DNA of 64,000 bases. Origin: Vicingaceae bacterium (GTDB taxonomy: Bacteria; Bacteroidota; Bacteroidia; Flavobacteriales_E; Vicingaceae). Made by a program: the position numbers and the translations under genes. This document shows positions 11,721 to 28,540 of the stretch, piece after piece (the stretch's first letter is position 1; the number at the start of each line of letters is the position of its first letter). A model generated the notes under the pieces. It searched no databases, was not told the origin of the DNA, and worked only from the letters and a program-made list of their open reading frames with translations. Location: the NCBI GenBank assembly GCA_040220135.1, contig JAVJTT010000025.1, positions 106,146-170,145 of the forward strand. The letters are read 5' to 3'.

Positions 11721-11721
11721 C

Positions 11722-12882: not shown

Positions 12883-12925
12883 TCAGTGACTTTTGGGTAG
12901 GTAAAGATGAGTAATAAAGTAATTG

Positions 12926-12962
12926 CAAAAAAATAGCCTACTAAAGAGTAGGCTATTTTTTT
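12926..12962. terminator. Bidirectional rho-independent terminator hairpin
   Basis: Perfect 10-bp stem ATAGCCTACT (12933-12942) / AGTAGGCTAT (12947-12956) with loop AAAG, flanked by an A-run and a T-run. Lies just downstream of the minus-strand gene ending at 12984. Confidence 0.6.
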
Positions 12963-12983
12963 ATCAGTAAAGTAAATAATTGA

Positions 12984-14649: not shown

Positions 14650-15690
14650 CTATTTTAAATAAGGAACTTGAGAAGTAGAAACATTAGGGACCTGAATAGT
14701 CCTTTCTGCTTTTTCAACCTTGTGCACAATCGCAACTACTTCTAATATAACATTAATTCCATGCATACTATCAGGATTCTTAAGACCAAGATAAAATTTA
14801 CCTCTTGCGAATTCATCTTTTAATTTTACCACCTCAGACTTTATATTCTTCCTGCCCTTTGCAGGATAACACCTCCACTCTGAATCTCTCTTTTGATAAA
14901 ATAAGCTTGCGTTTTCATAATCTGCAAATAAGTAAACATCACAATAATCATCTGCTGGTGGACGGGATATTGAAGAAATTGCAAATTCAGTAGCTCCTGT
15001 TTGATCAACTAAATTTGTAAGCTGAGACAATAGGCTCATTGATGAATTTACATTTTTAATCGCGTCTTTTTCTCTAAACGCAGCTATTTCATAATACCAT
15101 TCAACTGTACCCTTAGGTAGATCTACTTCATAAATAAGCCTTGATTTCCCGCCTTTGAAAGTAGCATTACTCCCACTATTCATATAAATTTCTGAGCTAT
15201 CTATAATTGAATATGGGACATATGCTTCTTTTACCACATACTCCTCTTTTGTGGCTGTATAAGTAGTATCATAAACTGTTTTCCAATAAACCGTAGAATT
15301 GAAACTATCATCTTCTTCCGCCGGAATACGTTCTATCTTGATCTTACCGATACGCTTGCCTAAAGCAGGGTTGTAAAAGCGAAATTGATAGATTCCGGTA
15401 CTGGGGACCGGAATTCTTTTCTGCTTGACTGTTTCTATTTCATATTCTGAAAACAAGGAACGACCGGACTGAAAATCCTTTATTTCCAATTCTTTCAATC
15501 CTTTCTTTCGCTTTTCTTCAAAAGTGAGCACTATCTCATCGCCTGCTTTGAAGCCTAAGTAAATAAACTCCTCACTTAAGGCCCCAATTTTGGTGGTTTG
15601 GTTGGTTAAAGGGATTGGGGTTTGTGCAAAAGCGACTTGAAACGTAAAACATAAACCAATAAAAAAACTGACTACTACTTTTTCCATCAT
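14650..15690 (-). CDS. Hypothetical secreted protein
   Basis: 346-aa ORF with signal peptide MMEKVVVSFFIGLCFTFQVAFAQ. Starts 14 nt after the DUF2130 gene stop. No motif recognised. Confidence 0.6.
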   Translation of the reverse strand: MMEKVVVSFFIGLCFTFQVAFAQTPIPLTNQTTKIGALSEEFIYLGFKAGDEIVLTFEEKRKKGLKELEIKDFQSGRSLFSEYEIETVKQKRIPVPSTGIYQFRFYNPALGKRIGKIKIERIPAEEDDSFNSTVYWKTVYDTTYTATKEEYVVKEAYVPYSIIDSSEIYMNSGSNATFKGGKSRLIYEVDLPKGTVEWYYEIAAFREKDAIKNVNSSMSLLSQLTNLVDQTGATEFAISSISRPPADDYCDVYLFADYENASLFYQKRDSEWRCYPAKGRKNIKSEVVKLKDEFARGKFYLGLKNPDSMHGINVILEVVAIVHKVEKAERTIQVPNVSTSQVPYLK

Positions 15691-15704: not shown

Positions 15705-16976
15705 TTATTCTAATTCTTCTTGTTCTTCCTCTTCTTCTTTGCCCAATTCTAGAGCCTTAACGCTTTGCACTGCATTTCCGGCAATGCCTTTAATTGAACC
15801 ATACATATCAACGGTATTGGTAATTACTTTGTCAATCTGCTTTTCTCTCGACTTCCAAATGCGTTGCATGGAGCGCTTTTCTTTTTCGAGGTCATCTTTC
15901 ATTTGTGAGAAACCTTCCACAATAGCTTCAATTTGCATGCGGAAAGTGTTGCTGGTTAAGAAGTCGTAAAGCATGTGCATTTTGTCTCCTTTATTCTCTT
16001 GAGAAGCAACGGCTAAACTCAATTGAATCACAGATTCTCGAATCACGGTACAAAGTCCCTTAAACTCTTCAAAACTGCACACCCAAACGCCATCAATAAT
16101 CCCCAAGCGATCTAATGAGGAAGGCATAGCTTCGCTTACCAAAATTCCCACATCGGCGCCTTTGTCGCGCATATCTGCTTTAAACTTTTCGATCCAGCTT
16201 GGTTGAAAGTCTTTGGTACGTTTACTTTCGTAGTAGACTTTTCCACAATTTTGACGAGAACGGGTATTGACAATTTGAATACAATCTCCGCCTCTAGCGC
16301 CTTTTTTCACTTCTTCAATGGAGTCTAATGGAAATTGAGCGGCCAACCATTCTTCTATGGCAAGTTCCTGCACTTCCCCTTGCATTTGCATAGAGCCTTG
16401 CTCCTGCTTGCGTTTCATTTCTTCGGTCAGCTTTTTTTGGTCTTCCAATTGCTTTTGAAGTTCTCTGAACTTTAATTCGTTCTTGTCTTCTTCTGACTTT
16501 CTTATTTTATCTCTTTCAGCGAGTAATAGCTCATTTAATTTCTTTTCGGCTTCTGCCTCGGCCGCTTCTTTGAGTTCTCCTTTCTCACGCTTTAAACGTT
16601 CGATCTCAACCTTAGAGCGATTTAACTCCTTTACTTGCTCAGACTTTTCGTTGAGTTCTTTTTGTAAGGCTTCAAATTGCTCTGACTGCTCTTCAGACAA
16701 CTTTGACTTCAGCTTTTCTTCAATTTCCTTTCGATCTTCTTTTAGCTGCTTTTCAAGCCGCTCTTGAAAAAGCTCATTTTCCTTCTTTCTCTTCTGCTCA
16801 AACTCTTCTTTTGCTTTTTTTAAGCTATCGGCTTCTTGCTGATACTTTTGCTTTTCTTCGGCTAATTGAGTTTGGTATTTCTGTTTGATCTCATCTTCTA
16901 ATTGATGAGCCAAAATATCTTGCACATCTATAGACTCTCCACAATTGGGACAGTTTATTTGAGTGTTGTCTTTCAT
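15705..16976 (-). CDS. DUF2130-type protein: zinc-ribbon-like N-terminus, long K/E coiled coil, C-terminal PD-(D/E)xK-like nuclease domain
   Basis: 423 aa. N-terminus INCPNCGESIDV, then ~190 aa K/E-rich. C-terminus GEVQELAIEEWL..FPLD.I..VKKGARGGD231CIQIV...GKVYYE250SK252RTKDFQPSWIEKFK matches my memory of the DUF2130 consensus and a D...ExK nuclease motif (16221-16286). Confidence 0.7.
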   Translation of the reverse strand: MKDNTQINCPNCGESIDVQDILAHQLEDEIKQKYQTQLAEEKQKYQQEADSLKKAKEEFEQKRKKENELFQERLEKQLKEDRKEIEEKLKSKLSEEQSEQFEALQKELNEKSEQVKELNRSKVEIERLKREKGELKEAAEAEAEKKLNELLLAERDKIRKSEEDKNELKFRELQKQLEDQKKLTEEMKRKQEQGSMQMQGEVQELAIEEWLAAQFPLDSIEEVKKGARGGDCIQIVNTRSRQNCGKVYYESKRTKDFQPSWIEKFKADMRDKGADVGILVSEAMPSSLDRLGIIDGVWVCSFEEFKGLCTVIRESVIQLSLAVASQENKGDKMHMLYDFLTSNTFRMQIEAIVEGFSQMKDDLEKEKRSMQRIWKSREKQIDKVITNTVDMYGSIKGIAGNAVQSVKALELGKEEEEEQEELE

Positions 16977-16986
16977 GTTTTCAATT

Positions 16987-19401
16987 TTAAGTTACCTCAA
17001 CTTCTTCTTCTGACTGTGACTCTCCAATACTGTTAAGCAAAGCTTGATATTGTTCAGAATCTTCTTCTTTTATTCTTTCAATTATAAGTTTGGCTGCTGT
17101 ATTCATTTCAGGGACTTCAACAACTGTTTCACCTCTTTCGAAAATCCCACTTAAATGCGAGTACTCATTATTCAACCTATCTGTAAATACTGCAGGTATA
17201 TTTTCATTTCCAAAGAACTTTTTCAGTTTATCAATTTGACTTGTTGAATCAGGGTATTTATAGTATAGGTATAATTCTAAAAATTTTCTTGCATTGTTAC
17301 CGAAATTATAAAATGCTGTATAACTGCTATCATCAACATTCTCCATAGTTGAACACTTATAAACTTGACTAAATAAATAATTAAACTCAGAAACATAATT
17401 CCTCAAAAATGTAGGCATTAGTTTTATCACTGAGTTCTTATCATTGCGTTCAATAACTAAGTATCTATATTTAGTTTTAGTCTCCTTGGTAGTATTAGCT
17501 CCAGGCAACCTTTTCAAGTATTTCAAAAAGTTTAAATTATGAGTTGAAATAAATAATTGCTCAAAATCATCTTCTCCATATATCTGAGTATTTATTAATG
17601 TGTAAATGAAAAAGATATGATTACTGTCAAGACTTGAAATAGGGTCATCAATCCAAATAATAGGTTTTTTACCTCTAGTTTCTATATCTTGAAGCTTTGC
17701 CATAAAATAGCAAAATGCAATTAGACTATTTTCGCCTTCACTTAAATGAAATGCTTTTTTATTCTCTCTATGTATTTCAAATCTGTACTGCTTACTACCT
17801 GTATCTTCATCTTCAAACTCAATGGCTTTTAATGATAAGAAGTTATGCTCAAAATAATTGTTTAGTAATTCATTAACCTTATCAGCTCCTTTGCTCTCAT
17901 CTTTCAACTCCCTTTGTTTAGCTGAAATCAGACTTAAAATTTCATCTATTTCAACTTGCTTATCGTCTCTTTTTTTCTTTTCCTCCTCAAGCTTGCCAAT
18001 AAGCGAAGCTATATTAGAGACCTGCTCATCATACTTTATTGTAGCTATGAAGTCATAAATCTCTCGTAAACGTAAATTTTTCTTAGCTTTCTCTTGGTCT
18101 TTACTTAACTTTTCGGTGTATTGGTTAGATTTTACTCGTAACTCTTCTATTTTTTCTATTGCTGTGTCTACTTGTGATTTCACACTATCTGGAGCTTCAA
18201 AATGTTGAGCATTTATAATGTCATTTTTTCTTTTTTCTAATTGCAATATTAATAAACCAAGCGAACTTTGATAATCTTTAATACTATTATCAAATGCTTC
18301 TTTCACAGCTTCAAACTCATCATTATATTTCGAATAAAAATTATCCTTTTCTACAATTTCTATTGAATCTAAAGACTTGCTTTCAATTTTAATTTTTGTA
18401 ATTAAGTCAGTGATTTCCTTTTCCAACTTATCCGATTCTTCATCAAAGTGTTTATCTAATCCACCCCATCGTGTTTCTTTAATTTTACTATTACAGAAGG
18501 CACAAGTATCTAATTTATCTTTGTGTAAATCTCGTCCTTCTTTTACCCATCTATTTAATACAGCATCTTTAACCAATTGCTCAATCTTATCTGATTGAGC
18601 AATTGGTTTTTCTATTAATTCCTTTGACTTGCCGGAAAAAATGTCAAATGATAAAGTCAATTCTTTTAAATCTGGAATATCATCTTTAGCTTGTTCTAAA
18701 AGTATCTTTTCTTCTAATGTTTTTTCTTCATCTGAAATAGGATTAAATTCTTCTTTTTTAACCTTTAATATTTCCTTCTTTAGTTTAGCATTAGTGTAAT
18801 TTTGATCTCCATATTTTTCAGAATTATATCTAATCCCACTTGGATTACCAATAGCTTTTTCATTAAGTTGTGAAGCTAAAGTTCTTTCAGCAGTCTTGTA
18901 TACCGATTTAGCGGTATTATAATTTGTTTGAAGAGATTTTAAATCTTTATACAAAGCTGTTTCTTCATTCTCTTCATTAACTCCTAATTTTTCTTTTAGA
19001 ACCTTTATCTCCTCTTCAATTGCATTATTGTCTTCACCAAGTATGGCAAAGGGTTGAACATTTTCATCGGGATTTATAATGAACTTTAAATTATGTTTAA
19101 TAAAGTCTTCATTAAAAACCCTTATTATCTTGCTGTGAGATAAAAAACCAGCTTGTGTAACATCTTCATTATCTATTATTGAAATACAGCATTCAGGATT
19201 TTGATATTTGTCCGATATAACGCCGGTTTCCATAGCTCTAACAACTCGAGATAGCGTTGTTTTTCCTGAATAATTCCGGCCATAAATGATATTAGTTTTC
19301 TTAAATGCTAAAACATTGGAATCTTCATCAATTACTTCTGAATCCCAGTTAAAATCATTGAATACTGCAAGATTTTTAATATATCTAATTTTCTCTATCA
19401 T
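16987..19401 (-). CDS. RloC-like AAA_13 ABC-type ATPase with Rad50-like zinc hook and C-terminal PrrC-type anticodon-nuclease region
   Basis: 804 aa. Walker A G41RNYSGKTT; ~400-aa K/E-rich coil containing C300AFC303 (18493-18504); LSEGENSL signature; Walker B IIWIDDPISSLD; FISTHN; C-terminal ARKFLE (R-x3-E) followed 40 aa later by NEYSH. Confidence 0.7.
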   Translation of the reverse strand: MIEKIRYIKNLAVFNDFNWDSEVIDEDSNVLAFKKTNIIYGRNYSGKTTLSRVVRAMETGVISDKYQNPECCISIIDNEDVTQAGFLSHSKIIRVFNEDFIKHNLKFIINPDENVQPFAILGEDNNAIEEEIKVLKEKLGVNEENEETALYKDLKSLQTNYNTAKSVYKTAERTLASQLNEKAIGNPSGIRYNSEKYGDQNYTNAKLKKEILKVKKEEFNPISDEEKTLEEKILLEQAKDDIPDLKELTLSFDIFSGKSKELIEKPIAQSDKIEQLVKDAVLNRWVKEGRDLHKDKLDTCAFCNSKIKETRWGGLDKHFDEESDKLEKEITDLITKIKIESKSLDSIEIVEKDNFYSKYNDEFEAVKEAFDNSIKDYQSSLGLLILQLEKRKNDIINAQHFEAPDSVKSQVDTAIEKIEELRVKSNQYTEKLSKDQEKAKKNLRLREIYDFIATIKYDEQVSNIASLIGKLEEEKKKRDDKQVEIDEILSLISAKQRELKDESKGADKVNELLNNYFEHNFLSLKAIEFEDEDTGSKQYRFEIHRENKKAFHLSEGENSLIAFCYFMAKLQDIETRGKKPIIWIDDPISSLDSNHIFFIYTLINTQIYGEDDFEQLFISTHNLNFLKYLKRLPGANTTKETKTKYRYLVIERNDKNSVIKLMPTFLRNYVSEFNYLFSQVYKCSTMENVDDSSYTAFYNFGNNARKFLELYLYYKYPDSTSQIDKLKKFFGNENIPAVFTDRLNNEYSHLSGIFERGETVVEVPEMNTAAKLIIERIKEEDSEQYQALLNSIGESQSEEEVEVT

Positions 19402-19508
19402 TTCCTAAACTTTATCGGTGTTGCTTCATCCAATCTTTCCAATATAACCCCATCAGCATCCGGGTATTTTTCTTTGGTCAGGTTTACTATGCCTACTGAA
19501 GTTTTCAT
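19398..19508 (-). CDS. 36-aa micro-ORF translationally coupled to the RloC-like gene
   Basis: My translation is MKTSVGIVNLTKEKYPDADGVILERLDEATPIKFRK. Its TGA overlaps the ATG at 19401 (ATGA). Below the ORF-track size cutoff; no homology recognised. Confidence 0.3.
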   Translation of the reverse strand: MKTSVGIVNLTKEKYPDADGVILERLDEATPIKFRK

Positions 19509-19586: not shown

Positions 19587-20252
19587 TTATTCTAAAGTAG
19601 AACCATCTTCAAAGATTACCTTTTCAGCTTTCCACACTACTTTTAAATCTTCTAGATCTTTATTTCGCAAAGCCTTGTCTTTATCGACAAATTGATTGTA
19701 GTCAGTTTGAGCATTCCATTTTACTTCTTGTCCTGCAGGTATTGGTTGGTCATAAACAAAATTTAGGGAAGAGATTGGCTCATCAAATAAATTAGTAAAA
19801 GTTATATTACCTTTTACCGCACGAATATTTTTATCAGAGTTATTCTTTATCACAAATTTATAAGTGATGTAATCTTGGTAGTCAACCTCTTTAAAACCTT
19901 TATCAAAACAAGAAACCATTACCACCTTATTTAATCTCTCTAATCTTTCGGCTTCTTCCCTAGCTGCTTTCTCTGCAAGTGCTTTTTGCTCCGCTTCCTT
20001 CTTTGCCTTTTCAACTTTCCACTTTTTGCCATCTTCTAATATTTTGGCATAAGTCATGTTTTCAAGTTCTTTATCTTGAAACTTGTAACGCATCATCGTT
20101 CCTAAAAGTAATTTGATCTCTGTTGAGTCCAATTCATTCTTCATGGCAAGCATATCTTCTTTTACCGTTTCATCTTTAAACTTTTTATCTAAAGGTGATG
20201 AACAAGAAAAAAGTATGAGTGCAATTCCTGTTAATAAAAACTGTTTCATCAT
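19587..20252 (-). CDS. Hypothetical lipoprotein with central K/E/A coiled segment
   Basis: ORF 19587..20303. ATGATG at 20252 gives MMKQFLLTGIALILFSCSS (lipobox). Contains KAKKEAEQKALAEKAAREEAERLERL. Confidence 0.6.
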   Translation of the reverse strand: MMKQFLLTGIALILFSCSSPLDKKFKDETVKEDMLAMKNELDSTEIKLLLGTMMRYKFQDKELENMTYAKILEDGKKWKVEKAKKEAEQKALAEKAAREEAERLERLNKVVMVSCFDKGFKEVDYQDYITYKFVIKNNSDKNIRAVKGNITFTNLFDEPISSLNFVYDQPIPAGQEVKWNAQTDYNQFVDKDKALRNKDLEDLKVVWKAEKVIFEDGSTLE

Positions 20253-20262
20253 TTCAATAAAT

Positions 20263-20466
20263 TTAAGTTGTGTGGCAATCGTTATTGCAGTAATAACATC
20301 CATTTACTTGATCATAATGTTCTTCTGCTTCTTCAGTAGCATCATCGCAATCTTCAAACTCACCTAAATACTTGGCACTAGATGGGAAGTATTCACATCC
20401 GTTTACATGAATCTCATGATCCCCATTTTCCTGTGCTTTTTCGTTTACGTAATATTTTTTCTTCAT
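20263..20466 (-). CDS. Small Cys/His-rich protein (putative metal-binding), unknown function
   Basis: ATG at 20466 gives MKKKYYVNEKAQENGDHEIHVNGCEYFP...LGEFEDCDDA...NGCYYCNNDCHTT, with 5 Cys plus His in 67 aa. Confidence 0.5.
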   Translation of the reverse strand: MKKKYYVNEKAQENGDHEIHVNGCEYFPSSAKYLGEFEDCDDATEEAEEHYDQVNGCYYCNNDCHTT

Positions 20467-20499
20467 TGTCTTTAGTTTTTTATTGAACATTATTTGATA

Positions 20500-20637
20500 T
20501 TAATCACCCTTTTTATGGTCGTGTTTTTTTAAGGGTGGATATTTCTTTTTCTTATCAGGTGTAACCCTTCTTCTTTTATCTAAAGAACCATCATCCTTCT
20601 TTGGTTTTGGTCCCGGTTTTATGGCTTCTGTTTTCAT
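20500..20637 (-). CDS. 45-aa lysine-rich micro-ORF
   Basis: My translation is MKTEAIKPGPKPKKDDGSLDKRRRVTPDKKKKYPPLKKHDHKKGD. It fills the gap between flanking genes on the same strand. Low complexity, so coding status is uncertain. Confidence 0.25.
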   Translation of the reverse strand: MKTEAIKPGPKPKKDDGSLDKRRRVTPDKKKKYPPLKKHDHKKGD

Positions 20638-20652
20638 GCTTTTTGATTTATT

Positions 20653-21153
20653 TTAAAGATTAAATTCTGAAATAACTTGTTCGTAATCAGAGACGTCGAT
20701 GCCACTTTTTTTTATCCGGTCTGATGAGGCAATGACAATGATTTTAAAGGTTTGAGACCCAGGATTTACTGGTGTTGTTCGATCTGAATCAGTCCAATAT
20801 ATTGAAACACCCCCTAATTTAGTCTCAACTTCAACAGATGTACTATAAGTTGAAGTTTGGTAAAACGTAATAGGTATTTGGTAGAAAGTGTCTTGGGTTT
20901 TTATATAGGCTAATACTGCTCCTGTATTTACTATATCTTGAGTGATTGCTGGAATAGATAGATTTGCTACCCAAGAAGGATCATCATACGTCCATGATGA
21001 AACCGTTAATGATGATGAAACATTAGCATTGCCATCAACCCCATCTTTTCCTGCAGGACCTGTAGGTCCTTCAGGCCCTTCCTTTTCACAACTAGCAAAA
21101 ATTGTTATAGTAGCTAAAATTAAAATAGCAATGATTGTCTTTAATAAATTCAT
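20653..21153 (-). CDS. Hypothetical lipoprotein with a short collagen-like G-X-Y stretch
   Basis: ORF 20653..21312. ATG at 21153 gives MNLLKTIIAILILATITIFASCEKE, followed by GPEGPTGPAGKDGVDG. Confidence 0.6.
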   Translation of the reverse strand: MNLLKTIIAILILATITIFASCEKEGPEGPTGPAGKDGVDGNANVSSSLTVSSWTYDDPSWVANLSIPAITQDIVNTGAVLAYIKTQDTFYQIPITFYQTSTYSTSVEVETKLGGVSIYWTDSDRTTPVNPGSQTFKIIVIASSDRIKKSGIDVSDYEQVISEFNL

Positions 21154-21172
21154 GTCTAAATTGTTTTGGTTT

Positions 21173-21577
21173 TTATTTTTGAATTTGCACTTGCTTTTCT
21201 GTTCTATACCTCCAGTTGGCAACTCCCCCATGATGTGAACATGCTCCTCTGCCGGTTGCACTGCTGTTACTGCCATCTCTACAGGTAGCGCCAATACGAT
21301 AGCTTGTTTCATGAACTAATGCTTTTCCTTCCTCGATATAAGTCTTAAATACATAGCCAAGATTGCCATCGTATCTTACTTTAGCCCAATCACCCTCTAC
21401 ACTAATAAATTCAACATTTGTGTACTGTTCTAACTTCTCTATAACTTCAGTGTCAGTACTTGGCCCAGTTCTAAAATTTAAATAGCTACCCGGCACATAA
21501 TAAGATGTAACTTCTTGTGAACTAATAGTACTTGAAAGAAATAGGAATATGGATAGTAGAGAAATAATTGATTTCAT
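21173..21577 (-). CDS. Secreted SH3-like + DUF3761-like domain protein
   Basis: Signal peptide present. YLNFRTGPSTDTEVIEKLEQYTNVEFISVEGDWAKVRYDG is a bacterial SH3 pattern. C-terminal GATCRDGSNSSATGRGACSHHGGVANW matches the DUF3761 pattern C.DG..S.S....G.CS.HGGV..W. Confidence 0.65.
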   Translation of the reverse strand: MKSIISLLSIFLFLSSTISSQEVTSYYVPGSYLNFRTGPSTDTEVIEKLEQYTNVEFISVEGDWAKVRYDGNLGYVFKTYIEEGKALVHETSYRIGATCRDGSNSSATGRGACSHHGGVANWRYRTEKQVQIQK

Positions 21578-21616
21578 TTGGTAAGTTGTTTCTTTTGAAT
21601 TTGAATTTGAATGATT

Positions 21617-21994
21617 TTATGTAACCTTAGAGGTCAAAAATTTTTGTACCTCGTATACATTAATTTTCTTGTTGAATTTCTTGCTTATTGAAGGGGTTTG
21701 CTCACTTGATATCCAGATTTTTAATTCAGCATCTAAATCAAGTGTACCAGCAGTTTCTAAAGAATATCTTGTAATATTCTTATAAGGCATTGATTTGTAT
21801 TCAACCTTTTTACCTGTCATCCCTTGAACATCGATCAAAACCAAGCGTCTATCCGTGAACATAAAAACGTCTCGAAACAATTTGAAGCCTAATTCAATCT
21901 TTTCATCCTCAAGCAGAAGACTTCCATATTTCTTACTTAGTTCTTCTGCTGAAACTTCACTTGCGTTTCCTAGTATGCTATTAAATAGTCCCAT
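21617..21994 (-). CDS. Bacterial PH domain protein (YokE-like, bPH_3)
   Basis: ATG at 21994 gives MGLFNSILGNASEVSAEELSKKYGSLLLEDEKIELGFKLFRDVFMFTDRRLVLIDVQG...YKSMPYKNITRYSLETAG, as I remember for the YokE-like PH family. Confidence 0.65.
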   Translation of the reverse strand: MGLFNSILGNASEVSAEELSKKYGSLLLEDEKIELGFKLFRDVFMFTDRRLVLIDVQGMTGKKVEYKSMPYKNITRYSLETAGTLDLDAELKIWISSEQTPSISKKFNKKINVYEVQKFLTSKVT

Positions 21995-22007
21995 AAATAT
22001 TTTGAAT

Positions 22008-22334
22008 TTAGATTGTACATATAATTTCACCCATTCTAGAATCAGAAGGATTGTATCCCTCTCTTATTGAACTAAAAGACTCATTTTCTAATTCCAGATC
22101 AGAGATTTTAGTTATTGAGTATAATTTCCAATCAGGTTTTTCCGAGCTACTACTAAACCCACTTAACCACCATGCTGATAAAGTGAGGTTCCCGGTAGAT
22201 TTAAGGTGCCCTAAAGTAAAAGGTTCTACAACTCGCCTGTTACCCTTGTAAATGAAAGAAATAACCTTTCGCTCTTTAATTGCCTGGCATATCAAATTTT
22301 GAATCATATCTACATTATATTTATGTTTATCCAT
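22008..22334 (-). CDS. Small WYL-like domain protein
   Basis: ORF 22008..22436; probable ATG at 22334. KVISFIYKGNRRVVEPFTLGHLKSTGNLTLSAWWLSGFSSSSEKPDWKLYSITKISDLEL resembles the WYL beta-barrel pattern. Confidence 0.45.
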   Translation of the reverse strand: MDKHKYNVDMIQNLICQAIKERKVISFIYKGNRRVVEPFTLGHLKSTGNLTLSAWWLSGFSSSSEKPDWKLYSITKISDLELENESFSSIREGYNPSDSRMGEIICTI

Positions 22335-22512
22335 CACATGCGCAACCTGACCCAACATGACAAGTTTTACTTTTTTCAATACACGTATCACCACAAGCTT
22401 TCCCCGTTGTACAAGTTTTGCAACACTCCTCGTCATCCTTTCCGCAGCTTCCTAATGTGACAGTCATTAGCAATACCATTATTGAAATAATCCTCATTAC
22501 ACTTATTTTCAT
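22327..22512 (-). CDS. Cys-rich small lipoprotein
   Basis: MKISVMRIISIMVLLMTVTLGSCGKDDEECCKTCTTGKACGDTCIEKSKTCHVGSGCACDG: a lipobox followed by 10 further Cys in the ~38-aa mature part. ATGA overlap with the nuclease gene stop. Confidence 0.5.
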   Translation of the reverse strand: MKISVMRIISIMVLLMTVTLGSCGKDDEECCKTCTTGKACGDTCIEKSKTCHVGSGCACDG

Positions 22513-23294
22513 TTCTTTAAGACTAGAATTTCACTTTCCAATCGACTTTCATCCTCATCTTTCAGTTTTTCAAAAAAGTCTACTTGGCTGAGGGCTTCTA
22601 ACTCATCTACCGTAAACTGATAGCTTTCTAAGCTTCCGCTATATTCCTCAGTAGAGTTATTCATGCGAAAGGCATACATCCGCATAGAATCAGGATAAAA
22701 GGCTATTTTATAAAGTTGATCCGGCACTCCTACCTTGTTTTCGCCAATAGTTTTATTTCCGGCTTTAAATAAACTTCCCGTTACCACAAAGGCAACGCAA
22801 TTCCATTCAAGCACTTTTTCACGTATGGCGGCTTCTAAATACTTCCAACCGTAGCGGTTTAATTCTTTTAACTGTGGAGAAACATTGGTGTAGGTAAAGG
22901 TTTCGTCTTTTAGCTCTTGGCTGTAGACAAAGTCACCTGCCGGCACATAATGCCCTCTGTCGTAGCCGCTTTTGTAGTAATCGGAACGTTTTGCAGAATA
23001 GACTTCTACCCTTTCATCAACTATAAAGTAATTGCTGCGTTGCGCTCTTATTCCATTTTTCTCCTGTAGCTGTTCTGGCGTAATGCGATGAATGGTGTAA
23101 TTCGGAACTTTTTGAGTTTGATTGAAATTCACCACAAAACCTTGGTACAGCACAAAGTCTTCAATGGGGTCTGCTTCAAAACGAAGGTGTGGACTGCTTA
23201 CTTTTTGCTCAACTAAAGCTGTAGTACTTAGTGTGCATGCTTCTAAGGCCACGACAATCAATAAGAAACCTATTAATTTAAATAGCAACCTCAT
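22509..23294 (-). CDS. Secreted DNA/RNA non-specific endonuclease (Endonuclease_NS, DRGH family)
   Basis: Signal peptide MRLLFKLIGFLLIVVALEAC. Active-site motif SGYDRGHYVPAGDF and downstream TNVSPQ (metal-binding Asn). Confidence 0.85.
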   Translation of the reverse strand: MRLLFKLIGFLLIVVALEACTLSTTALVEQKVSSPHLRFEADPIEDFVLYQGFVVNFNQTQKVPNYTIHRITPEQLQEKNGIRAQRSNYFIVDERVEVYSAKRSDYYKSGYDRGHYVPAGDFVYSQELKDETFTYTNVSPQLKELNRYGWKYLEAAIREKVLEWNCVAFVVTGSLFKAGNKTIGENKVGVPDQLYKIAFYPDSMRMYAFRMNNSTEEYSGSLESYQFTVDELEALSQVDFFEKLKDEDESRLESEILVLKK

Positions 23295-24460
23295 GATAGT
23301 AGATTAGTTGAGGTTATTTTCCACTCACCATGCTGAAAGTGAAAGTCATACTCTTCTAGCGGCAGAAAGCCGTAAAATTCAATTTGTCTTATCTTGTAAT
23401 GATCTGTATTTGCCGAGCATTCAAGCTTTACTCTTACACATCTAATGTTGGCTTGGTAAGCCACCTTGGCGGTATAATAGTCATCGTTTACTTGTTGTGC
23501 TTGCGGTACTTTGTAGCTTAACGGCTCACGATTTACCATTAGATATTCCAGATGATATTCAGGAAAGGCGTGATGCTTCAACAAATAAATATCACAGCTG
23601 TCAAAAAGGTGTTTTTGATAAGGCTTGAGCTCTTTTACTTCTATAATTCCGGCACTTTTAAGGTTTTTTCGGTACTCTAGCTCATTTTCCAATCCATAAA
23701 AATGGAAGTAGTTGCGTTTATAATTCTCTTTTTCTTCAAAAGGCTTATAAAATGAGATTAACCGGGCTAAGCTAATTGGTGCTTGAGCTTCCCATTTTCG
23801 GTATTGGGCTTGCATGTGCTTCTCCAATCGGCCAATTCGTTGATCTACTAATTCGGTTAAGATGCTTTTGGTTATCGGTAGGATGGTATCTTTCAACTGC
23901 ACCCTCAGTTCAGCACTATTCGTCAACCAATAAAAAGAAGTATCAATTCCATTTGCCTTAACCGCAACCAAGAGCGAATCTTGTGCTTCTTCCCTATTCC
24001 AACGCAAAGCAAACTCTCCGGCACCATTGCTTAAGGTTTTATAATCGTGATAAGGTAAACTCACTTGAGCGCCTTCTAAAGGGTCATCGCCTAAGCTTAA
24101 CTTGCCGTTTACAAATAGATAGGGAGTGCATGTTGAACTACTTGCTAAACCTACCGGATTAAAAAGATAAACAGCAAGAAAAAGCGTCAAGAGTAACCCA
24201 AGCTTAAATTCAGTTTTGTTCTCGCTCCATTTACTAAAGATAGAAGCAAAAAGTCCGGTTACGGCGATGGCTAAAGCAGCTCTCAGCACTGTAATTTGCT
24301 CAGTTGTGGGACATTCTAATACAAAAACAAAGATTGACACCACGATAACAAGTGCGAAATAGGTTATTATAGCCCATTTATAATCAACATTTCCTAAAGG
24401 ATGATTGACAATGTGGGTGATGATCTTGGCCGACTTGGTTTTCAGTTTGTCAATCTTCAT
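23291..24460 (-). CDS. Hypothetical membrane protein (3 N-terminal TM helices + ~270-aa soluble region)
   Basis: 389-aa ORF with hydrophobic segments WAIITYFALVIVVSIFVFVL, ITVLRAALAIAVTGLFASIF and LGLLLTLFLAVYLFNPVGL. 4-nt overlap with the nuclease gene and 11-nt overlap with the upstream gene. Confidence 0.6.
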   Translation of the reverse strand: MKIDKLKTKSAKIITHIVNHPLGNVDYKWAIITYFALVIVVSIFVFVLECPTTEQITVLRAALAIAVTGLFASIFSKWSENKTEFKLGLLLTLFLAVYLFNPVGLASSSTCTPYLFVNGKLSLGDDPLEGAQVSLPYHDYKTLSNGAGEFALRWNREEAQDSLLVAVKANGIDTSFYWLTNSAELRVQLKDTILPITKSILTELVDQRIGRLEKHMQAQYRKWEAQAPISLARLISFYKPFEEKENYKRNYFHFYGLENELEYRKNLKSAGIIEVKELKPYQKHLFDSCDIYLLKHHAFPEYHLEYLMVNREPLSYKVPQAQQVNDDYYTAKVAYQANIRCVRVKLECSANTDHYKIRQIEFYGFLPLEEYDFHFQHGEWKITSTNLLS

Positions 24461-25337
24461 CTTCCTGCTTCTGTTTACCGTAATAGTGATTCTCTATGTG
24501 TGGGGCATTCTTAGAATTCAATTGCCCGATAACAAATCCTTGGTTATGTCCTACCTCATTCTTAATCACTGTTTTCTTATAGCTCTTGGTTTTCTTTTTC
24601 TTCTTTTCCTCTCGGCTATACCACAGTTCAATAGAATAAAGTAACTGCACTAAAAAGCATAAGTCATCACTGTTGTTATGAAATCGCAGTTCTTTTTCAG
24701 CATCAATTACATCGTTAAAAAACTCAAGCTCAGATATCCTTTCTGCCAACCAGATTAATACAATATGATTGGCCTTTTCACTTTTTAAAAACAGTTTTAG
24801 GCTATTGCTTTTGAAAAAGGCAGGAGGAACAAAGCAAATTGGCAATTGCTTTTCCATTTTATTCATCAATTGCTCCTCCCACTCTTTTTCACCATCGAAG
24901 TCGGTCACATGATAGGCCAATTCTTGTCCGGGATAAAAGCTATCTTCTATAGCTTCTTTTAGTGGATGTTTTTTAGATCGAGGTAGTAAAAAATTAAAAA
25001 TATTGTGTTTAAGCTGTAGTTTATCTAATTGAGCTTTAACATGCAGATACTGTTCACGAAAGGTCTGATAGTCCTCAAAATTCAGGAAATTCAAATACTC
25101 TTGAAGATACTCGTCACTTATTTTGATTTCATCTTCATACTTAGATAGAGCAGTTGGAATCTTGTTATTATCAATTCGATAGGTATATTCTAGTTGTGTT
25201 TGGCTCCTATTTCCAAGCTCCAATTTTTCTTGGATTTTTTCAGACAAATCTCTTAACCCTGAATAGTCTCTTTGTAAACCGGCTTTCACCAACATCAAGT
25301 CAATCAACAAGGAAATTTCGAAAACGGGACACTTCAT
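24450..25337 (-). CDS. Hypothetical cytoplasmic protein
   Basis: 295-aa ORF with no signal peptide and a K-rich tract EEKKKKKTKSYKK. First gene of the tightly packed string. Confidence 0.55.
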   Translation of the reverse strand: MKCPVFEISLLIDLMLVKAGLQRDYSGLRDLSEKIQEKLELGNRSQTQLEYTYRIDNNKIPTALSKYEDEIKISDEYLQEYLNFLNFEDYQTFREQYLHVKAQLDKLQLKHNIFNFLLPRSKKHPLKEAIEDSFYPGQELAYHVTDFDGEKEWEEQLMNKMEKQLPICFVPPAFFKSNSLKLFLKSEKANHIVLIWLAERISELEFFNDVIDAEKELRFHNNSDDLCFLVQLLYSIELWYSREEKKKKKTKSYKKTVIKNEVGHNQGFVIGQLNSKNAPHIENHYYGKQKQEDED

Positions 25338-25437
25338 ATTTATTGAATTGAATCCCGAAATAAAGCAGCTGACTTTACCCTAGCAAAAAGACTTTCTGAA
25401 AGGGCTTATTTCTTCTCTGAAGTGGGGTGTTTTCTTT

Positions 25438-26211
25438 TTAAAGGGTTTGAATCTTCTCGAACAAAACCTCTCTGTATCTAGCTCCAATAGAAAACTCTTT
25501 TTCTCCTAGTAATACCTTGTTTCCTTTAATGGCTTGTACCTTTTGAATATTTATGCTTGCCGATTTACTAATTCTGATGACATTTTCTTTGCAGTATGGA
25601 GCTACTTGAAGACTTTCTAAAACAGTATTCATCGGCTTTGATATGTGATACTCTTTCTCAGTGGTTTTCAAACGGCAATAAGATGTATCAGCCATCAAAC
25701 ATTCTATCTCATTTAAATCAATGGTATACAAACCACCTTTCGCTTTTAACATGAAATGTTTTTTGAAAACGCGTCCTTCTTCTAAAGATTGATTATTTTT
25801 TGTTTTAGAATATTTCTTTTGAAAAGTATTAAGGGCTAACTCAATACTTCTTTGCAATGAAACAGCTGTAACGGGCTTGCTTAAAAAAGCATGCGGTTGA
25901 ACTTTCTTGGCTCGATTAAATGTGAATTGATCGGTTTGATCGGTTAAAAATATGATAGGAATCTCATAGTCCTGGATTAGTTTCGTTGCTGTTTCAATCC
26001 CATCCATTTCACCTTTTATCCGAATGTCCATCAAAATTAAGTCTGGCGGATTCTTGCTAACTTCATTCATTGCCATTTCTCCACTTTCTGCTACAGCACA
26101 AACTTCAAAGCCAACAGCTCGAATATCTTCACATAAACTTTCTGCTACTAAAAAATTATCTTCCACCACTAAAATTTGAATCACAGGCAATAGTTGTAAA
26201 TTGTGGTTCAA
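25438..26211 (-). CDS. LytTR-family two-component response regulator
   Basis: REC domain (ILVVEDN...DLILMDIRI...K) plus a C-terminal LytTR pattern (YTIDLNEIECLMADTSYCRLKTTEKEYHISKPMNTVLESL). Confidence 0.9.
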   Translation of the reverse strand: MNHNLQLLPVIQILVVEDNFLVAESLCEDIRAVGFEVCAVAESGEMAMNEVSKNPPDLILMDIRIKGEMDGIETATKLIQDYEIPIIFLTDQTDQFTFNRAKKVQPHAFLSKPVTAVSLQRSIELALNTFQKKYSKTKNNQSLEEGRVFKKHFMLKAKGGLYTIDLNEIECLMADTSYCRLKTTEKEYHISKPMNTVLESLQVAPYCKENVIRISKSASINIQKVQAIKGNKVLLGEKEFSIGARYREVLFEKIQTL

Positions 26212-26237
26212 TTTAAGGCTTTTCTCAAAAGTATAAA

Positions 26238-28088
26238 ATGAAAAAACGACTCTTCACTCTTCTTTATCTTTTTCTCTCATTAGCTTTAGTTAGAGCTAAT
26301 GAAAACCTTGAAAAACACAATTTAGAAGCCAAAGCTAAAAAGGCTTTAGTTGAGAAAAATGCAGATTCTGCTCGTTACTTTCTCCACCAGATTATAAGAA
26401 AATACCCGAAAGAAATAGTGATGGTAGCTAGGTCTTATAATAGTTTAGGAATGATTGACGTTCAAGAAGGTTTCACAAAGCGGGGTCTGGAATATTTACA
26501 TAAAGCTATTGATGCATTTGAAAAAAACAACAATGATACTCTCTTGGCCATAAGCCTATACAACACAGGTAAAAGCTATAAAATGCTAGCTCAGTATGAC
26601 AAAGCCGCTGAATTACTGCTTCGTGCTTTAGGTCTTTTTGAGGCTTTGGACAATCACTTTTATGCTTCGCTAACGAATAGTTCACTCGGAAATTTATATA
26701 AGGAATCAAACGATTTTGAAGTTGCTCTAAAGTTTCAAGATAAAGCCATTCAAATAGCACAAAAGACAGGTGACTCCTCTCGATTAGCGAAATTCCTTAA
26801 CAACAAAGGAAAAGTTTATACTGAAATGGAATTCTTTCAGGAGGCAATAAATTGCTTTGATTCCGCTTTAACGATCAAGAAATTAAAAGGCTTTGTTGCA
26901 TCTTCTGCCTATACTTTATACAATTTAGGAGAGGCTGAGTTTTTAAGGGGTAAATACCAAAAGGCAATCAACTATTTTAATCAAGCACTAGGTATTCATG
27001 AAAATTCTAAAAATAAAAGAGAAATCGCATACACCTACAACTTCTTAGGAAAAGCTTACAGTCGAATAAATGAAAAAAAGAAAAGCCTAAGCTTTCTAAA
27101 TAAAGCCCAAATTATAGCTGCGGAGTTAGATATGAACGACTTGCTTTTAAGCAATTATGAAGCCTTTTATCAATTATATGATAGTACAAATGATCTAAAA
27201 AATGCTTTAGCTAGCTACAAAAAATACAATCAGAAATACAAAGAGGTTATTGATCAAAAGAAGCAAGAAAAAATAAAGGAACTTCAAATAAAGTATGAAG
27301 TTGAAAAAAAGGAGCAAGAAAATAAACTTCTGATACAGAAAGCAGAAATAAATAAACTAAAAATTAATAAACAAGAAAACTCAATTTGGTTTTGGAGGTG
27401 GATTACTGTAATGGCATTTGTATTAATCCTATTCGTTTTGGTTTTAAGTCGTAAGTATTACACCCTCTTTGAAAAGGAAAAAAGACTAGCCAAAATGGAG
27501 AAAGACCTAAACATTGAACAGCACCATAGAATAAAGAATCACCTTCAAGTTTTAGCTGGAATACTGAGTTTTCAGCAACGAAAAATACAGGACCATACAG
27601 CGAAGGAGGTAATCTTAGAAAGTAGGAATCGGGTTAATGTTATAAAAATGTTACATCAACATTTTTATCAAAATGAAATCTATGATGGAACTGCTATACA
27701 AATGCATAGCTATCTGAAAGACATCATAGAAAATCTAATTTTACTTTTCGACAAGCGGGAAATTAAGACTGATTTAAAAATTAGTGATGTTGCGCTATCT
27801 CCTGACAAAGCCCTACCGCTTGGACTAATCATAAATGAGATCATCAGTAATGCGTTAAAGTATGGCCTGAATCAAAATAAGAAATCTTGTTTGACAGTTC
27901 TTTTTACGGAAGAAAATCGACAAATAACTTTAATTATTGAAGATAATGGAAATGGCTTTAAAAGTCTAACTGGTATTGACGCCTCTATAGGCCTAAATTT
28001 AATAGATCAATTAATTGATCAAATGGACGCCAAGCTAGAAAGAAACTTTAGATCAGGGACACAGTATGTCATAAAATTTAAAAGTTAA
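26238..28088 (+). CDS. Sensor histidine kinase: signal peptide, TPR repeats, TM helix, HisKA_2 + HATPase_c
   Basis: TPR-like repeats (YNSLGMI, LYNTGKSY, LNNKGKVY, LYNLGEAE, YNFLGKAY). TM helix WITVMAFVLILFVLVL. H-box EQHHRIKNHLQVLAGIL, N-box NEIISNALKYG, G-box IIEDNGNGF. Confidence 0.85.
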   Translation: MKKRLFTLLYLFLSLALVRANENLEKHNLEAKAKKALVEKNADSARYFLHQIIRKYPKEIVMVARSYNSLGMIDVQEGFTKRGLEYLHKAIDAFEKNNNDTLLAISLYNTGKSYKMLAQYDKAAELLLRALGLFEALDNHFYASLTNSSLGNLYKESNDFEVALKFQDKAIQIAQKTGDSSRLAKFLNNKGKVYTEMEFFQEAINCFDSALTIKKLKGFVASSAYTLYNLGEAEFLRGKYQKAINYFNQALGIHENSKNKREIAYTYNFLGKAYSRINEKKKSLSFLNKAQIIAAELDMNDLLLSNYEAFYQLYDSTNDLKNALASYKKYNQKYKEVIDQKKQEKIKELQIKYEVEKKEQENKLLIQKAEINKLKINKQENSIWFWRWITVMAFVLILFVLVLSRKYYTLFEKEKRLAKMEKDLNIEQHHRIKNHLQVLAGILSFQQRKIQDHTAKEVILESRNRVNVIKMLHQHFYQNEIYDGTAIQMHSYLKDIIENLILLFDKREIKTDLKISDVALSPDKALPLGLIINEIISNALKYGLNQNKKSCLTVLFTEENRQITLIIEDNGNGFKSLTGIDASIGLNLIDQLIDQMDAKLERNFRSGTQYVIKFKS

Positions 28089-28126: not shown

Positions 28127-28540
28127 TTAGTGCTCCATGCTTATGGTAACTGGGTTTGCATTTGGAAAACTGTAGTTTATTGATTCTACAGTTTGGTAGC
28201 CGCTAGCAGTAACAATGAAAGAATAGTCCGCACTATCATTTTCAAATTGAAACTCTCCCTCAACATTTGTAAAGGCTGTATCTAATGGGTTAACTTGATT
28301 TGCATCGTACAATACAACTCTTGCATTAGAAATTCGACTTGGAGAGGAGAGCTCTTGCACTACCCCATAAATGATTATCCATTCCTCTTCTTCACCACCT
28401 CCATCTTTTTGGAATCGACTTTGCTTCTTTTGAGAAGTTTCTGTTTTTATCTTTCCTGGTGTAATGTTTTCCTCTTCACAGCTTGTTAAAACAAGAACTG
28501 AAGAAAAAAGAACTGCAATAATTAGCGTTAAACTTTTCAT
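28127..28540 (-). CDS. Small lipoprotein with carboxypeptidase-regulatory-like (CarboxypepD_reg) domain
   Basis: Lipobox LVLTSCEEE. IYGVVQE...ISNARVVLYDAN...TNVEGEFQFEN...IVTASGYQ is a typical CarboxypepD_reg pattern. Confidence 0.55.
   Translation of the reverse strand: MKSLTLIIAVLFSSVLVLTSCEEENITPGKIKTETSQKKQSRFQKDGGGEEEEWIIIYGVVQELSSPSRISNARVVLYDANQVNPLDTAFTNVEGEFQFENDSADYSFIVTASGYQTVESINYSFPNANPVTISMEH

Follow-up and report, generated by a model that had tools for sequence, protein, structure and literature searches.

A rare, modular Bacteroidia locus with a predicted LytTR operator, a putative split membrane protein and interchangeable nucleases

We analysed a 64,000-nt stretch of DNA from a Vicingaceae bacterium (NCBI GenBank assembly GCA_040220135.1, contig JAVJTT010000025.1, positions 106,146 to 170,145 of the forward strand; hereafter the window, within which all positions are counted). 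Its minus strand carries at 19587-25337 a string of eleven closely packed small genes, located downstream of a gene for a LytTR response regulator. A preceding reading made from the letters alone (the sequence-only reading) had described the string as an eleven-gene unit around a secreted nuclease. All 11 open reading frames (ORFs; g1 to g11) were recovered where that reading had placed them, and recomputation gave the same value for every junction. The overlaps are 11 nt (g1/g2), 4 nt (g2/g3), 4 nt (g3/g4) and 8 nt (g4/g5), and the gaps from g5 through g11 are, in order, 13, 39, 19, 15, 33 and 10 nt. The LytTR regulator gene lies 100 nt from g1, and g11 lies 78 nt from a 36-aa ORF that overlaps a gene for an RloC-like protein. 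Because each of g1 to g10 has homologues in other genomes, these frames are taken to be real genes and not chance frames. Comparison with other genomes indicated that the window carries, in this string, its own copy of a Bacteroidia locus that is rare, modular and horizontally mobile, and that ten of the eleven genes belong to it. Loci, genomes and proteins other than those of the window are cited below by working numbers beginning with L, G and P, respectively.

Most of the domain calls of the sequence-only reading held (Endonuclease_NS in g3, bPH_1 in g6 and SH3 in g7), whereas the WYL call for g5 and the DUF3761 call for g7 proved to be below threshold. Lipoboxes were legible in the g3, g4, g8 and g11 sequences. 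No Pfam or NCBIfam family matched g1, g2, g4, g8, g9, g10 or g11, and an NCBIfam search of the string returned the SH3 matches of g7 only. PADLOC 2.0 gave no match for g1, g2, g3, g4, g6, g7, g8, g9, g10, the CarboxypepD_reg lipoprotein encoded beside the kinase, or the secreted protein y346, for which the L079 homologue and not the window's own protein was scanned. The sole match of a module gene in PADLOC was that of g5 to a generic WYL model, and the only system-specific match among the scanned window genes was that of the RloC-like gene (PDC-S06).

The string is preceded by a two-component system. The gene for the sensor histidine kinase (26238..28088, plus strand; Pfam TPR_12, HisKA_2 and HATPase_c) is divergent from that for the response regulator (25438..26211, minus strand; REC + LytTR, with Pfam Response_reg at 3e-20 and LytTR at 3e-8), and the two are 26 nt apart. 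A hydrophobicity scan combined with the Pfam matches gave a kinase layout of a signal peptide, approximately 350 aa of TPR repeats (predicted to be periplasmic), one transmembrane (TM) segment at residues 382-411, HisKA_2 and HATPase. Kinase orthologues were present in all loci, with 27-53% identity. In nearly every locus examined, the kinase gene is adjoined by a gene for a lipoprotein with a CarboxypepD_reg-like domain, which in the window encodes 137 aa (CPDlipo; 28127..28540, minus strand; Pfam CarboxypepD_reg 9e-8); homologues were found beside the kinase in L003, L005, L009, L034, L035/36, L041, L074, L076, L077, L079, L080, L082 and L087. The signal sensed by this kinase may be an envelope or extracellular cue.

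Directly upstream of the regulator gene, at 26226-26233, is a -7 motif of the Bacteroidetes type, TACTTTTG. Between the regulator gene and g1 lies a predicted LytTR box (25392..25421, minus strand) composed of paired 9-bp direct repeats, TTCAGAGAA and TTCAGAAAG, with a 12-nt spacer. From the end of its proximal repeat to the ATG of g1 there are 54 nt, and within this interval, about 29 nt downstream of the repeat, lies the weak -7-like element TATTTCG. The same 9+12+9 arrangement was present in 12 of 12 loci with a regulator-to-next-gene spacer of at least about 80 nt. The consensus across loci was two TTCrGAAAg repeats with a 12-nt spacer, and the distance from the end of the proximal repeat to the start codon was 35-62 nt, with L074 alone outside the range of 49-62 nt; the repeats were followed by a T-rich stretch and then a weak -7-like element. 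The window box was the top-scoring paired site in the entire 3.64-Mb genome, a ranking that is slightly circular because the scoring matrix contained the half-sites of the window box itself. Genome-wide, 38 paired sites scored at least 17 bits, compared with 8-16 in shuffled genomes. The LytTR control that the sequence-only reading had proposed is thus supported by a conserved direct-repeat box ahead of g1.

Searching the minus strand between 14000 and 26400 for Bacteroidetes -7 motifs returned sites only in the regulator gene, in the region upstream of it and within g11, with none in the intergenic gaps of the string, and no terminator-like hairpins were found on the minus strand from 28116 to 14702. 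A sigma-70 promoter scan was uninformative (47 sites versus 48.8 expected). Because neither hairpin terminators nor intergenic -7 motifs were found, the simplest reading, and a plausible one, is that a single box-dependent transcript would run from g1 onward.

The first gene of the string, g1 (24450..25337, minus strand), encodes a 295-aa cytoplasmic protein. Its N-domain is helical, its central domain is of the alpha/beta type and may be a degenerate TIR domain, and a K-rich linker leads to the conserved tail NEVGHNQGFVIGQL..HYYG. A g1 profile run against 1.84 billion representatives found only 26 relatives. The 389-aa product of g2 (23291..24460, minus strand) had been read as a protein with three TM segments, and three hydrophobic segments were indeed present within residues 25-108. 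Profile and hydrophobicity analysis gave a layout in which three TM segments are followed by a beta-sandwich resembling CarboxypepD_reg, then by a long helix and, at the C-terminus, by a domain (g2C) that is predicted to be periplasmic. The CarboxypepD_reg assignment is supported by many weak matches of the g2 profile to TonB-receptor N-termini. Word-indexed protein searches returned only 3 relatives for g2 and 5 for g1.

Three of the 26 g1 relatives were natural g1+g2 fusions (P0010, P0022 and P0033, with lengths of 556, 636 and 651 aa among them), in which the two parts are joined via one or three TM segments. Together with the 11-nt overlap of the two genes, these fusions are evidence of the Rosetta-stone kind for joint action of g1 and g2 as a single transmembrane protein, in which g1 would form the cytoplasmic half and g2 the membrane and periplasmic half of a receptor-like molecule; the topology of g2 is a prediction. 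In seven sister loci, a protein composed of a TIR domain, one TM segment and g2C stood in place of g1 and g2. The TIR domain of these proteins matched Pfam TIR_2 at 1e-17 to 1e-22 and AbTIR, PdTIR and TcpB at 1e-37 to 1e-39, and the glutamate of the W-x3-E motif was invariant. A protein with the g1 N-domain was also encoded in TIR-subtype loci (L076, L079, L080, L082 and L087), past the lipoprotein gene on the far side of the kinase. The central domain of g1 aligned only weakly with the sister TIR domains (hhalign probability 37%), 1 of 22 g1-family members had a TIR_2 match (2e-4), and the catalytic Glu was not conserved in g1.

As a separate observation, members of the g1 family and stand-alone sister TIR proteins (window 24450-24560; L076 11009-11572; P0017 and P0024) have similar C-terminal tails, in which a K-rich linker is followed by a sequence of the S-G-x-V-x-L-G-x-I-G-x-I-K-A-x-Y-I-S-x-R-D-M-H-I-N-I type or by the tail of the g1 type given above. 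This shared tail may be a docking peptide for a membrane partner.

The third gene, g3 (22509..23294, minus strand), encodes a 261-aa lipoprotein of the EndoG/NucA type of non-specific nucleases (beta-beta-alpha-Me; Pfam PF01223 at 1e-47). The match scored 163 bits against a gathering cut-off of 23 and covered profile positions 19-222 of 223. EndoG, EXOG, Anabaena NucA and Serratia nuclease were matched in the PDB, the catalytic DRGH and the metal-ligand Asn were intact, and SGYDRGH and NVSPQ aligned with the EndoG chains 3ism and 3s5b. By this comparison g3 is predicted to be an exported non-specific nuclease with an intact active site. The protein is composed of a lipoprotein signal and the catalytic domain and nothing further; no delivery or trafficking domain (type VI secretion system, type IX secretion system C-terminal domain, Rhs or similar) was found on it. 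Orthologues of g3, 48-77% identical, were present in 8 loci, and g3 was the most conserved gene (75-77% identity) among the f1-type loci, which include those of the window, G009 and L005.

The sequence-only reading had placed the nuclease at the centre of the system. The sister loci argue against this, as those lacking a g3-type nuclease carried an HNH (about 100 aa) or DEDDh enzyme, neither with a signal peptide, together with the TIR domain. The nuclease thus appears to be a swappable part of the module. The gene that follows the nuclease also differed by locus, being g4 or a gene for a 128-aa, 117-aa, 122-aa or DUF3761 protein.

A class-wide profile search, followed by labelling of the fetched loci, extended the comparison to a wider census. 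The module was seen in 16 loci from four Bacteroidia families, and these share the order of the core. Conservation of gene order elsewhere was a check that the sequence-only reading had itself named, and its statement that the composition matches no described operon also stood, with the addition that the unit is coherent. Literature searches on DUF3761, on LytTR with nuclease, Bacteroidetes or Flavobacterium, and on transmembrane TIR with LytTR found no description of such a module. With a sharper profile, g2C was found in 12 of 401 Bacteroidia species genomes, distributed over 7 genera and 4 families and always as a single copy, and a g2C search for the module in a separate phylum-wide sample of 400 genomes found none. 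Among 40 relatives, g2 and close orthologues of the nuclease and the kinase were present only in G009, a metagenome-assembled genome of the Flavobacteriales, and all three were absent from both genomes of the same genus. An exact-pattern locus search with g2 returned one locus only.

The core order (lipoprotein, kinase, regulator-g1-g2-nuclease) was kept with 52-77% identity in G009, which represents a second genus, as well as in three strain variants from metagenomes. The genes after the nuclease differed even between strains with identical g2. In G009 (L003) these were a 128-aa lipoprotein and HNH genes, then Cas9-Cas1-Cas2; in L005 they were 128-aa, HNH, EGF-like, bPH_1, g4-like, KTSC, TM2/SHOCT and further genes up to a y346 orthologue, then a SIR2-short prokaryotic Argonaute (pAgo); and in L009 they were 117-aa, HNH, bPH_2, g10-like and g4-like genes. 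G297 (L074) showed the order regulator-g1-g2-...-nuclease-g4-g9-g5-...-g10-TM2. Remote g1 relatives (E down to 1e-3) occurred in the same neighbourhood, consisting of the lipoprotein, TPR-HisKA_2 kinase, LytTR regulator, g1(g2), Endonuclease_NS and small genes, and the small genes of these remote loci included g7 homologues (40% in the most distant locus), g10 homologues (43%), HNH, bPH_3, TM2 and DUF1508. The seven TIR-subtype loci, with HNH or DEDDh instead of the exported nuclease, carried y346, g7, g10 and small Y-H-x3-C lipoproteins. The sister loci thereby rejected the view that the string is a random mosaic of accessory genes.

The genes g4 to g10 make up the small-gene part of the string, and all are on the minus strand. 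A 61-aa Cys-rich lipoprotein is encoded by g4 (22327..22512), with C-x-K-D-D-E after the lipobox and the motif CCKxCxxGKACGDxC...C..GCACDG; homologues were found in L005, L009 and L074. The g5 product (22008..22334) is a weakly WYL-like cytoplasmic protein of about 100-108 aa with a homologue in L074 at 7e-27. Its Pfam WYL match (PF13280, 1e-3) reached 19.4 bits, below the gathering cut-off of 21.8, and its PADLOC WYL match was 1.3e-5. The start codon of g5 is uncertain, as the L074 homologue aligns from the second Met; with a start there, the 8-nt g4/g5 overlap would become a 19-nt gap. The 125-aa product of g6 (21617..21994) matched bPH_1 (Pfam PF08000) at 6e-50 with 168.8 bits, above gathering, over profile positions 1-121 of 122. 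It is 93.6% identical to the L005 bPH_1 protein at the aa level and 80% identical at the nt level, so that purifying selection and not recent transfer is indicated, and recent horizontal transfer of the bPH gene was rejected. Other bPH classes were present elsewhere (bPH_2 in L009 and bPH_3 in L035/36). That the WYL and bPH domains serve as ligand sensors, as the sequence-only reading had suggested, is speculative.

A secreted 134-aa protein with SH3b and DUF3761 domains is encoded by g7 (21173..21577; Pfam SH3_3 at 3e-11; DUF3761 just short of its cut-off, with 28.1 of 29 bits). This was the most widely kept accessory gene, with homologues in at least nine loci, including L038 (40%), L035/36, L079, L080, L082, L087, L097 and L074. 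The product of g8 (20653..21153) is a 166-aa lipoprotein whose collagen-like G-x-y triplets amount to a brief GPEGPTGPAGKDGVDG run (Pfam Collagen E = 0.039); homologues were found in L076, L077 (two copies) and L090. The 45-aa product of g9 (20500..20637) is K-rich and highly basic (17 K/R), with homologues in L074 (1e-22), L085 and L094. At the nt level, g9 and its flanks (window 20497-20650 versus L074 5398-5551 in G297) were 86% identical, compared with about 70% for the neighbouring genes; such unusually strong constraint could reflect a peptide function or an overlapping RNA element.

The 67-aa cytoplasmic product of g10 (20263..20466) has the Cys/His pattern H-E-x-H..C...C...C-x2-C-x3-C-H and is probably metal-binding. 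Homologues of g10 were found in 27 of 401 genomes, with a strong bias towards genomes carrying g2C (8 of 12, versus 19 of 389 others; Fisher p = 6e-8), and in 6 of the 8 g2C genomes carrying g10 the two were within the same locus. Beyond the RloC-like block lies y346 (14650..15690, minus strand), a gene for a 346-aa secreted protein with 73% identity to the last gene product of the L005 array (345 aa). It had homologues in five loci besides the window, namely L005 and, inside the operon, L079, L080, L087 and L097, and it had no Pfam or PDB match.

These distributions indicate that g4, g5, g7, g8, g9, g10 and y346 recur from a shared pool with changing order. They are regarded as a pool and not as a fixed set because they also cluster without this two-component system. 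A second kind of array (L085 7100-15400, L088 7100-15200, and L091), with a different TPR-type kinase and a 222-aa regulator, has in common with the studied loci g10, g9, TM2/DUF4236, the Y-H-x3-C lipoprotein and a TerB-422aa-300aa triad. The triad was also present inside the G297 module. These shared elements point to a broader group of small-gene arrays linked to two-component systems in the Bacteroidia. Also recurrent was an exported Cys motif, (V/I)Y-x-T-x-x-G-x-K-Y-H-x3-C...P-C-x2-C, which occurred alone in small lipoproteins or fused after SH3b (L079 10358-10822; L080 9342-9674; L076 9340-9732 and 16201-16530; C-termini of the g7 homologues in L035, L079 and L080), and g10 has a similar pattern, H-x3-C...C-x2-C. 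The resemblance of the Cys motifs of the sister proteins to Ada_Zn_binding was insignificant (E = 0.23) and that to Excalibur was faint (E = 0.005). An integron-like cassette array was considered and rejected, because the gaps (10-39 nt, or overlaps) are too short and no integrase is adjacent.

The eleven-gene unit of the sequence-only reading required revision at its distal end, where g11 is unrelated to the module and y346, distal to the RloC insertion, does belong. The 221-aa lipoprotein encoded by g11 (19587..20252, minus strand) had more than 317 homologues with 63-79% identity, widespread in Flavobacteriaceae, including Zobellia, Salegentibacter and Dokdonia. In Zobellia and Salegentibacter its contexts contained an OLD-family nuclease, type I HsdR, AbiEi and an integrase, and no g11 homologue was found in any sister locus. 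We therefore place g11 outside the module, probably as a passenger that came with the RloC-DUF2130 block. In addition, g11 homologues recurred beside defence and mobile genes, PDDEXK_4 among them, at L098 8001-8666 and L100 8001-8666, and g11 may be a marker gene of defence islands.

The block itself (15705..19508, minus strand) consists of the 36-aa ORF, an RloC-like AAA_13 ATPase and a DUF2130 protein (PADLOC PDC-S06 at 3e-300; Pfam AAA_13 and DUF2130). It is located between g10/g11 and y346 and is absent from the orthologous L005 array; because that array runs directly into the y346 orthologue, the three window genes are read as an insertion. The block looks like a defence cassette within a LytTR-driven operon and possibly borrows the transcription of the operon. 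Two further features were noted. Between cas9 and cas1 in G009 (L003 2220-2582) there was a fragment of a transposase of the RAYT type (...FFSSYTQAFNK...IHYIHYNP...), and a related RAYT pseudogene with REP hairpins was present just past y346 in the window (13911-14531), so that this element family flanks the variable end of the locus in both genera. Three secreted proteins of 258, 386 and 300 aa encoded at window 10911-13760 showed weak clustering (E about 1e-4) with the L035/L036 lipoproteins that carry CarboxypepD_reg, and their common C-terminal module may be a divergent CarboxypepD_reg-like domain.

As described above, the sequence comparison shows the conserved core with its LytTR box, the g1-g2 fusion, the swaps of TIR and nuclease, the membership of the pool and the exclusion of g11. 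What the module amounts to so far is a two-component-controlled accessory operon with a known nuclease. As to its role, we consider it slightly more probable than the alternatives combined that the genes form one LytTR-controlled regulon that is induced for conflict or defence at the level of the envelope, directed at phage, foreign DNA or competitors. Taken by itself, a conflict or defence role is favoured with a confidence at or just above the even mark, and a housekeeping role of the locus is less likely. According to this proposal, the periplasmic TPR kinase and the CarboxypepD_reg lipoprotein would detect an envelope or extracellular cue, and the kinase would phosphorylate the LytTR regulator. 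Some 50 nt upstream of g1, the regulator would then bind the pair of 9-bp direct repeats (TTCrGAAAg, spaced by 12 bp) and turn on a long co-directional transcript. From this transcript, g1 and g2 would be made as a transmembrane receptor-like protein, with the TIR-like g1, which seems to lack the catalytic Glu, in the cytoplasm and the CarboxypepD_reg domain and g2C in the periplasm. The g3 nuclease lipoprotein, on or outside the envelope, would be the effector in this lineage, and g4 to g10 and y346 would supply small secreted, lipoprotein and cytoplasmic proteins drawn from the shared pool, a set that turns over fast between strains.

A conflict or defence role is favoured because sister loci have, at the equivalent position, an AbTIR-like TIR domain with its catalytic residue, because nuclease types swap as effectors do in conflict systems, because the locus is rare, patchy and fast-changing, and because three orthologous f1 loci adjoin three different defence systems (RloC-type PDC-S06 in the window, Cas9-Cas1-Cas2 in G009 and SIR2-short pAgo in L005).

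Several points weigh against this role. An exported nuclease is unable to reach phage DNA inside the cell, and transcriptional induction is slow for a defence of the abortive-infection type. The neighbouring defence islands are only guilt by association, in three or four contexts. The likeness of g1 to TIR domains is weak and its catalytic Glu is lost. Structure prediction of g1 and g2 with AlphaFold, a check proposed in the sequence-only reading, was based on alignments of 4-5 sequences and gave unusable models (predicted local distance difference test scores of 48 and 40), profile searches of g1, g2, g10 and y346 against PDB sequences found no match, and none of these four had a Pfam or NCBIfam match. 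Many of the pool genes, among them those that accompany another TPR kinase and regulator in L085, L088 and L091, are also found apart from this two-component system and may encode general envelope or stress proteins. Co-transcription and induction of the string are, moreover, what we infer from the arrangement of box and genes.

A stronger form of the conflict role is held only tentatively. The locus would then represent an undescribed family of transcriptionally induced, envelope-sensing Bacteroidia immune systems that combine a Toll-like-receptor-shaped protein, interchangeable nucleases and fast-evolving small factors. With similarly limited confidence, the lineage of the window would have replaced the TIR domain by the split, degenerate TIR-like g1, and g2C would be the periplasmic sensor.

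The alternative that survives best, although we regard it as unlikely, is a general envelope-stress regulon, in which the kinase would sense envelope damage, the LytTR regulator would induce protective small proteins and the nuclease would only clear released DNA. Pool genes and their array neighbours are of kinds frequent in stress regulons (bPH, TM2/DUF4236, TerB, Pmp3, DUF1508, SHOCT and KTSC), the occurrence of pool genes in L085, L088 and L091 fits such a role, one gene ahead of the nuclease has weak LrgA and DUF6232 matches, and a majority of the products are exported. However, a stress regulon does not readily account for the AbTIR-like TIR domain with its catalytic Glu or for the swappable HNH and DEDDh enzymes of the sister loci, which are typical of conflict systems, nor for a rare and patchy distribution with turnover of content at the strain level and embedding among defence genes.

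Use of extracellular DNA, or remodelling of a biofilm matrix, is a less probable explanation still. A nutrient or surface cue would induce a surface nuclease with DNA- or wall-binding helpers, in keeping with an intact exported nuclease that is the most conserved f1-type gene, with the cell-wall-binding SH3b domain of g7, and with the faint likeness of some sister Cys motifs to Ada-Zn or Excalibur noted above. The TIR-type sister loci nevertheless keep the rest of the module without this nuclease, and the HNH and DEDDh replacements lack a signal peptide. No phosphatase, nucleotidase or transporter genes are linked to the locus, and the module is absent from most relatives, the same genus included.

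The sequence-only reading had also suggested interbacterial antagonism, with g3 as a toxin and the small Cys-rich and other proteins as cognate inhibitors or immunity factors, which we consider very improbable. A secreted nuclease followed by overlapping small genes does recall such an arrangement, the variable downstream arrays resemble orphan-immunity arrays, and LytTR regulators control bacteriocin loci in Firmicutes. A cognate pairing is argued against because the gene after the nuclease varies without matching changes in the nuclease, which is conserved (75-77% identity) and not diversifying, and because both candidates for an immunity role, g4 and the 128-aa protein, are lipoproteins that are exported; g7, g8 and y346 are likewise exported. 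Furthermore, g3 has no delivery domain, and no string gene matched the NuiA inhibitor family in Pfam even at E up to 10.

Chance juxtaposition, that is, a hotspot of small accessory genes with no functional link to each other or to the regulator, would agree with the different array contents of near-identical strains, with the demonstrably unrelated passengers g11 and RloC-DUF2130 and with the occurrence of pool genes elsewhere, but it deserves hardly any credence given that this two-component system is repeatedly accompanied by the same gene families across four bacterial families (with the g10-g2C co-occurrence given above), that the LytTR box is conserved, that g1-g2 fusions exist and that neither terminators nor promoters lie between the genes.

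If the conflict-role proposal is true, the locus defines a conserved, unnamed module whose operator can be read from sequence alone, so that its regulation is directly testable. The natural fusions would link two orphan proteins as parts of a single receptor-like membrane protein, and a clear effector swap would be at hand, in which one position holds a TIR domain, a TIR-like domain, an EndoG-type nuclease, or an HNH or DEDDh enzyme. A transcription-based, envelope-facing layer would be added to bacterial conflict systems, in a phylum with poorly charted defence, together with a membrane-anchored bacterial TIR protein whose topology parallels that of animal Toll-like receptors. At least six small-protein families without a Pfam or NCBIfam entry (g1, g2C, g4, g9, g10 and y346) are new. 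Even if the role is stress or DNA scavenging, the regulon, the operator and the families are new and experimentally tractable.

Among known systems, g3 resembles EndoG, Serratia NucA and Anabaena NucA (PF01223) in its full catalytic domain, DRGH and metal-binding Asn, and it is exported like the bacterial members. It differs from them as a lipoprotein whose gene follows those of the split membrane protein in an operon under two-component control. In contrast to the NucA-NuiA pair, no NuiA-type inhibitor is linked to it, and sister loci replace it by other nucleases.

The regulatory part is similar to ComDE of Streptococcus pneumoniae and AgrCA of Staphylococcus aureus, in which a REC + LytTR regulator is encoded next to a kinase. 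ComE promoters contain two imperfect 9-bp direct repeats with a 12-nt linker (PMC4005675), and AgrA binds two direct repeats upstream of its promoters (PMC4227749). The predicted box has the same 9+12+9 layout as that of ComE, ahead of the target promoter, in 12 loci. However, the repeat sequence (TTCrGAAAg) is different, the host belongs to the Bacteroidia and the regulated genes are unrelated. Whereas ComDE and AgrCA use a polytopic peptide-pheromone receptor kinase, the kinase described here is of the HisKA_2 type with a large periplasmic TPR sensor, and no pheromone precursor, processing or export gene (ABC exporter included) or polytopic HPK10-type kinase was found in the locus. The pneumococcal regulatory cascade also leads to EndA, a membrane-bound nuclease of the Endonuclease_NS family, and to the SH3b-bearing hydrolase CbpD, which is a resemblance only.

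The TIR domain of the sister loci, with its catalytic Glu, is similar to AbTIR, PdTIR, TcpB/BtpA, Thoeris ThsB and PADLOC PDC-S66, and g1 occupies the equivalent position in the window. Unlike the TIR NADases and Thoeris, it forms the cytoplasmic end of a membrane protein whose periplasmic domain is novel, which gives a predicted Toll-like-receptor topology. It is also placed under a LytTR two-component system with no ThsA, SAVED or STING partner, and in the window g1 lacks the catalytic Glu.

In Detocs the sensor is cytoplasmic, DtcB acts as a buffer receiver and the regulator is joined directly to an enzymatic effector (bioRxiv 10.1101/2023.01.24.525353). The locus described here shares with Detocs a TPR-bearing histidine kinase and a response regulator outside ordinary physiology, swappable effectors and a location in defence islands. 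It falls outside the definition of Detocs, and its kinase and regulator matched only the generic TPR and REC models in PADLOC. Here the TPR repeats are predicted to be periplasmic, no stand-alone or buffer receiver is present, and the regulator ends in a LytTR DNA-binding domain with a conserved operator, so that the output of this system would be transcription.

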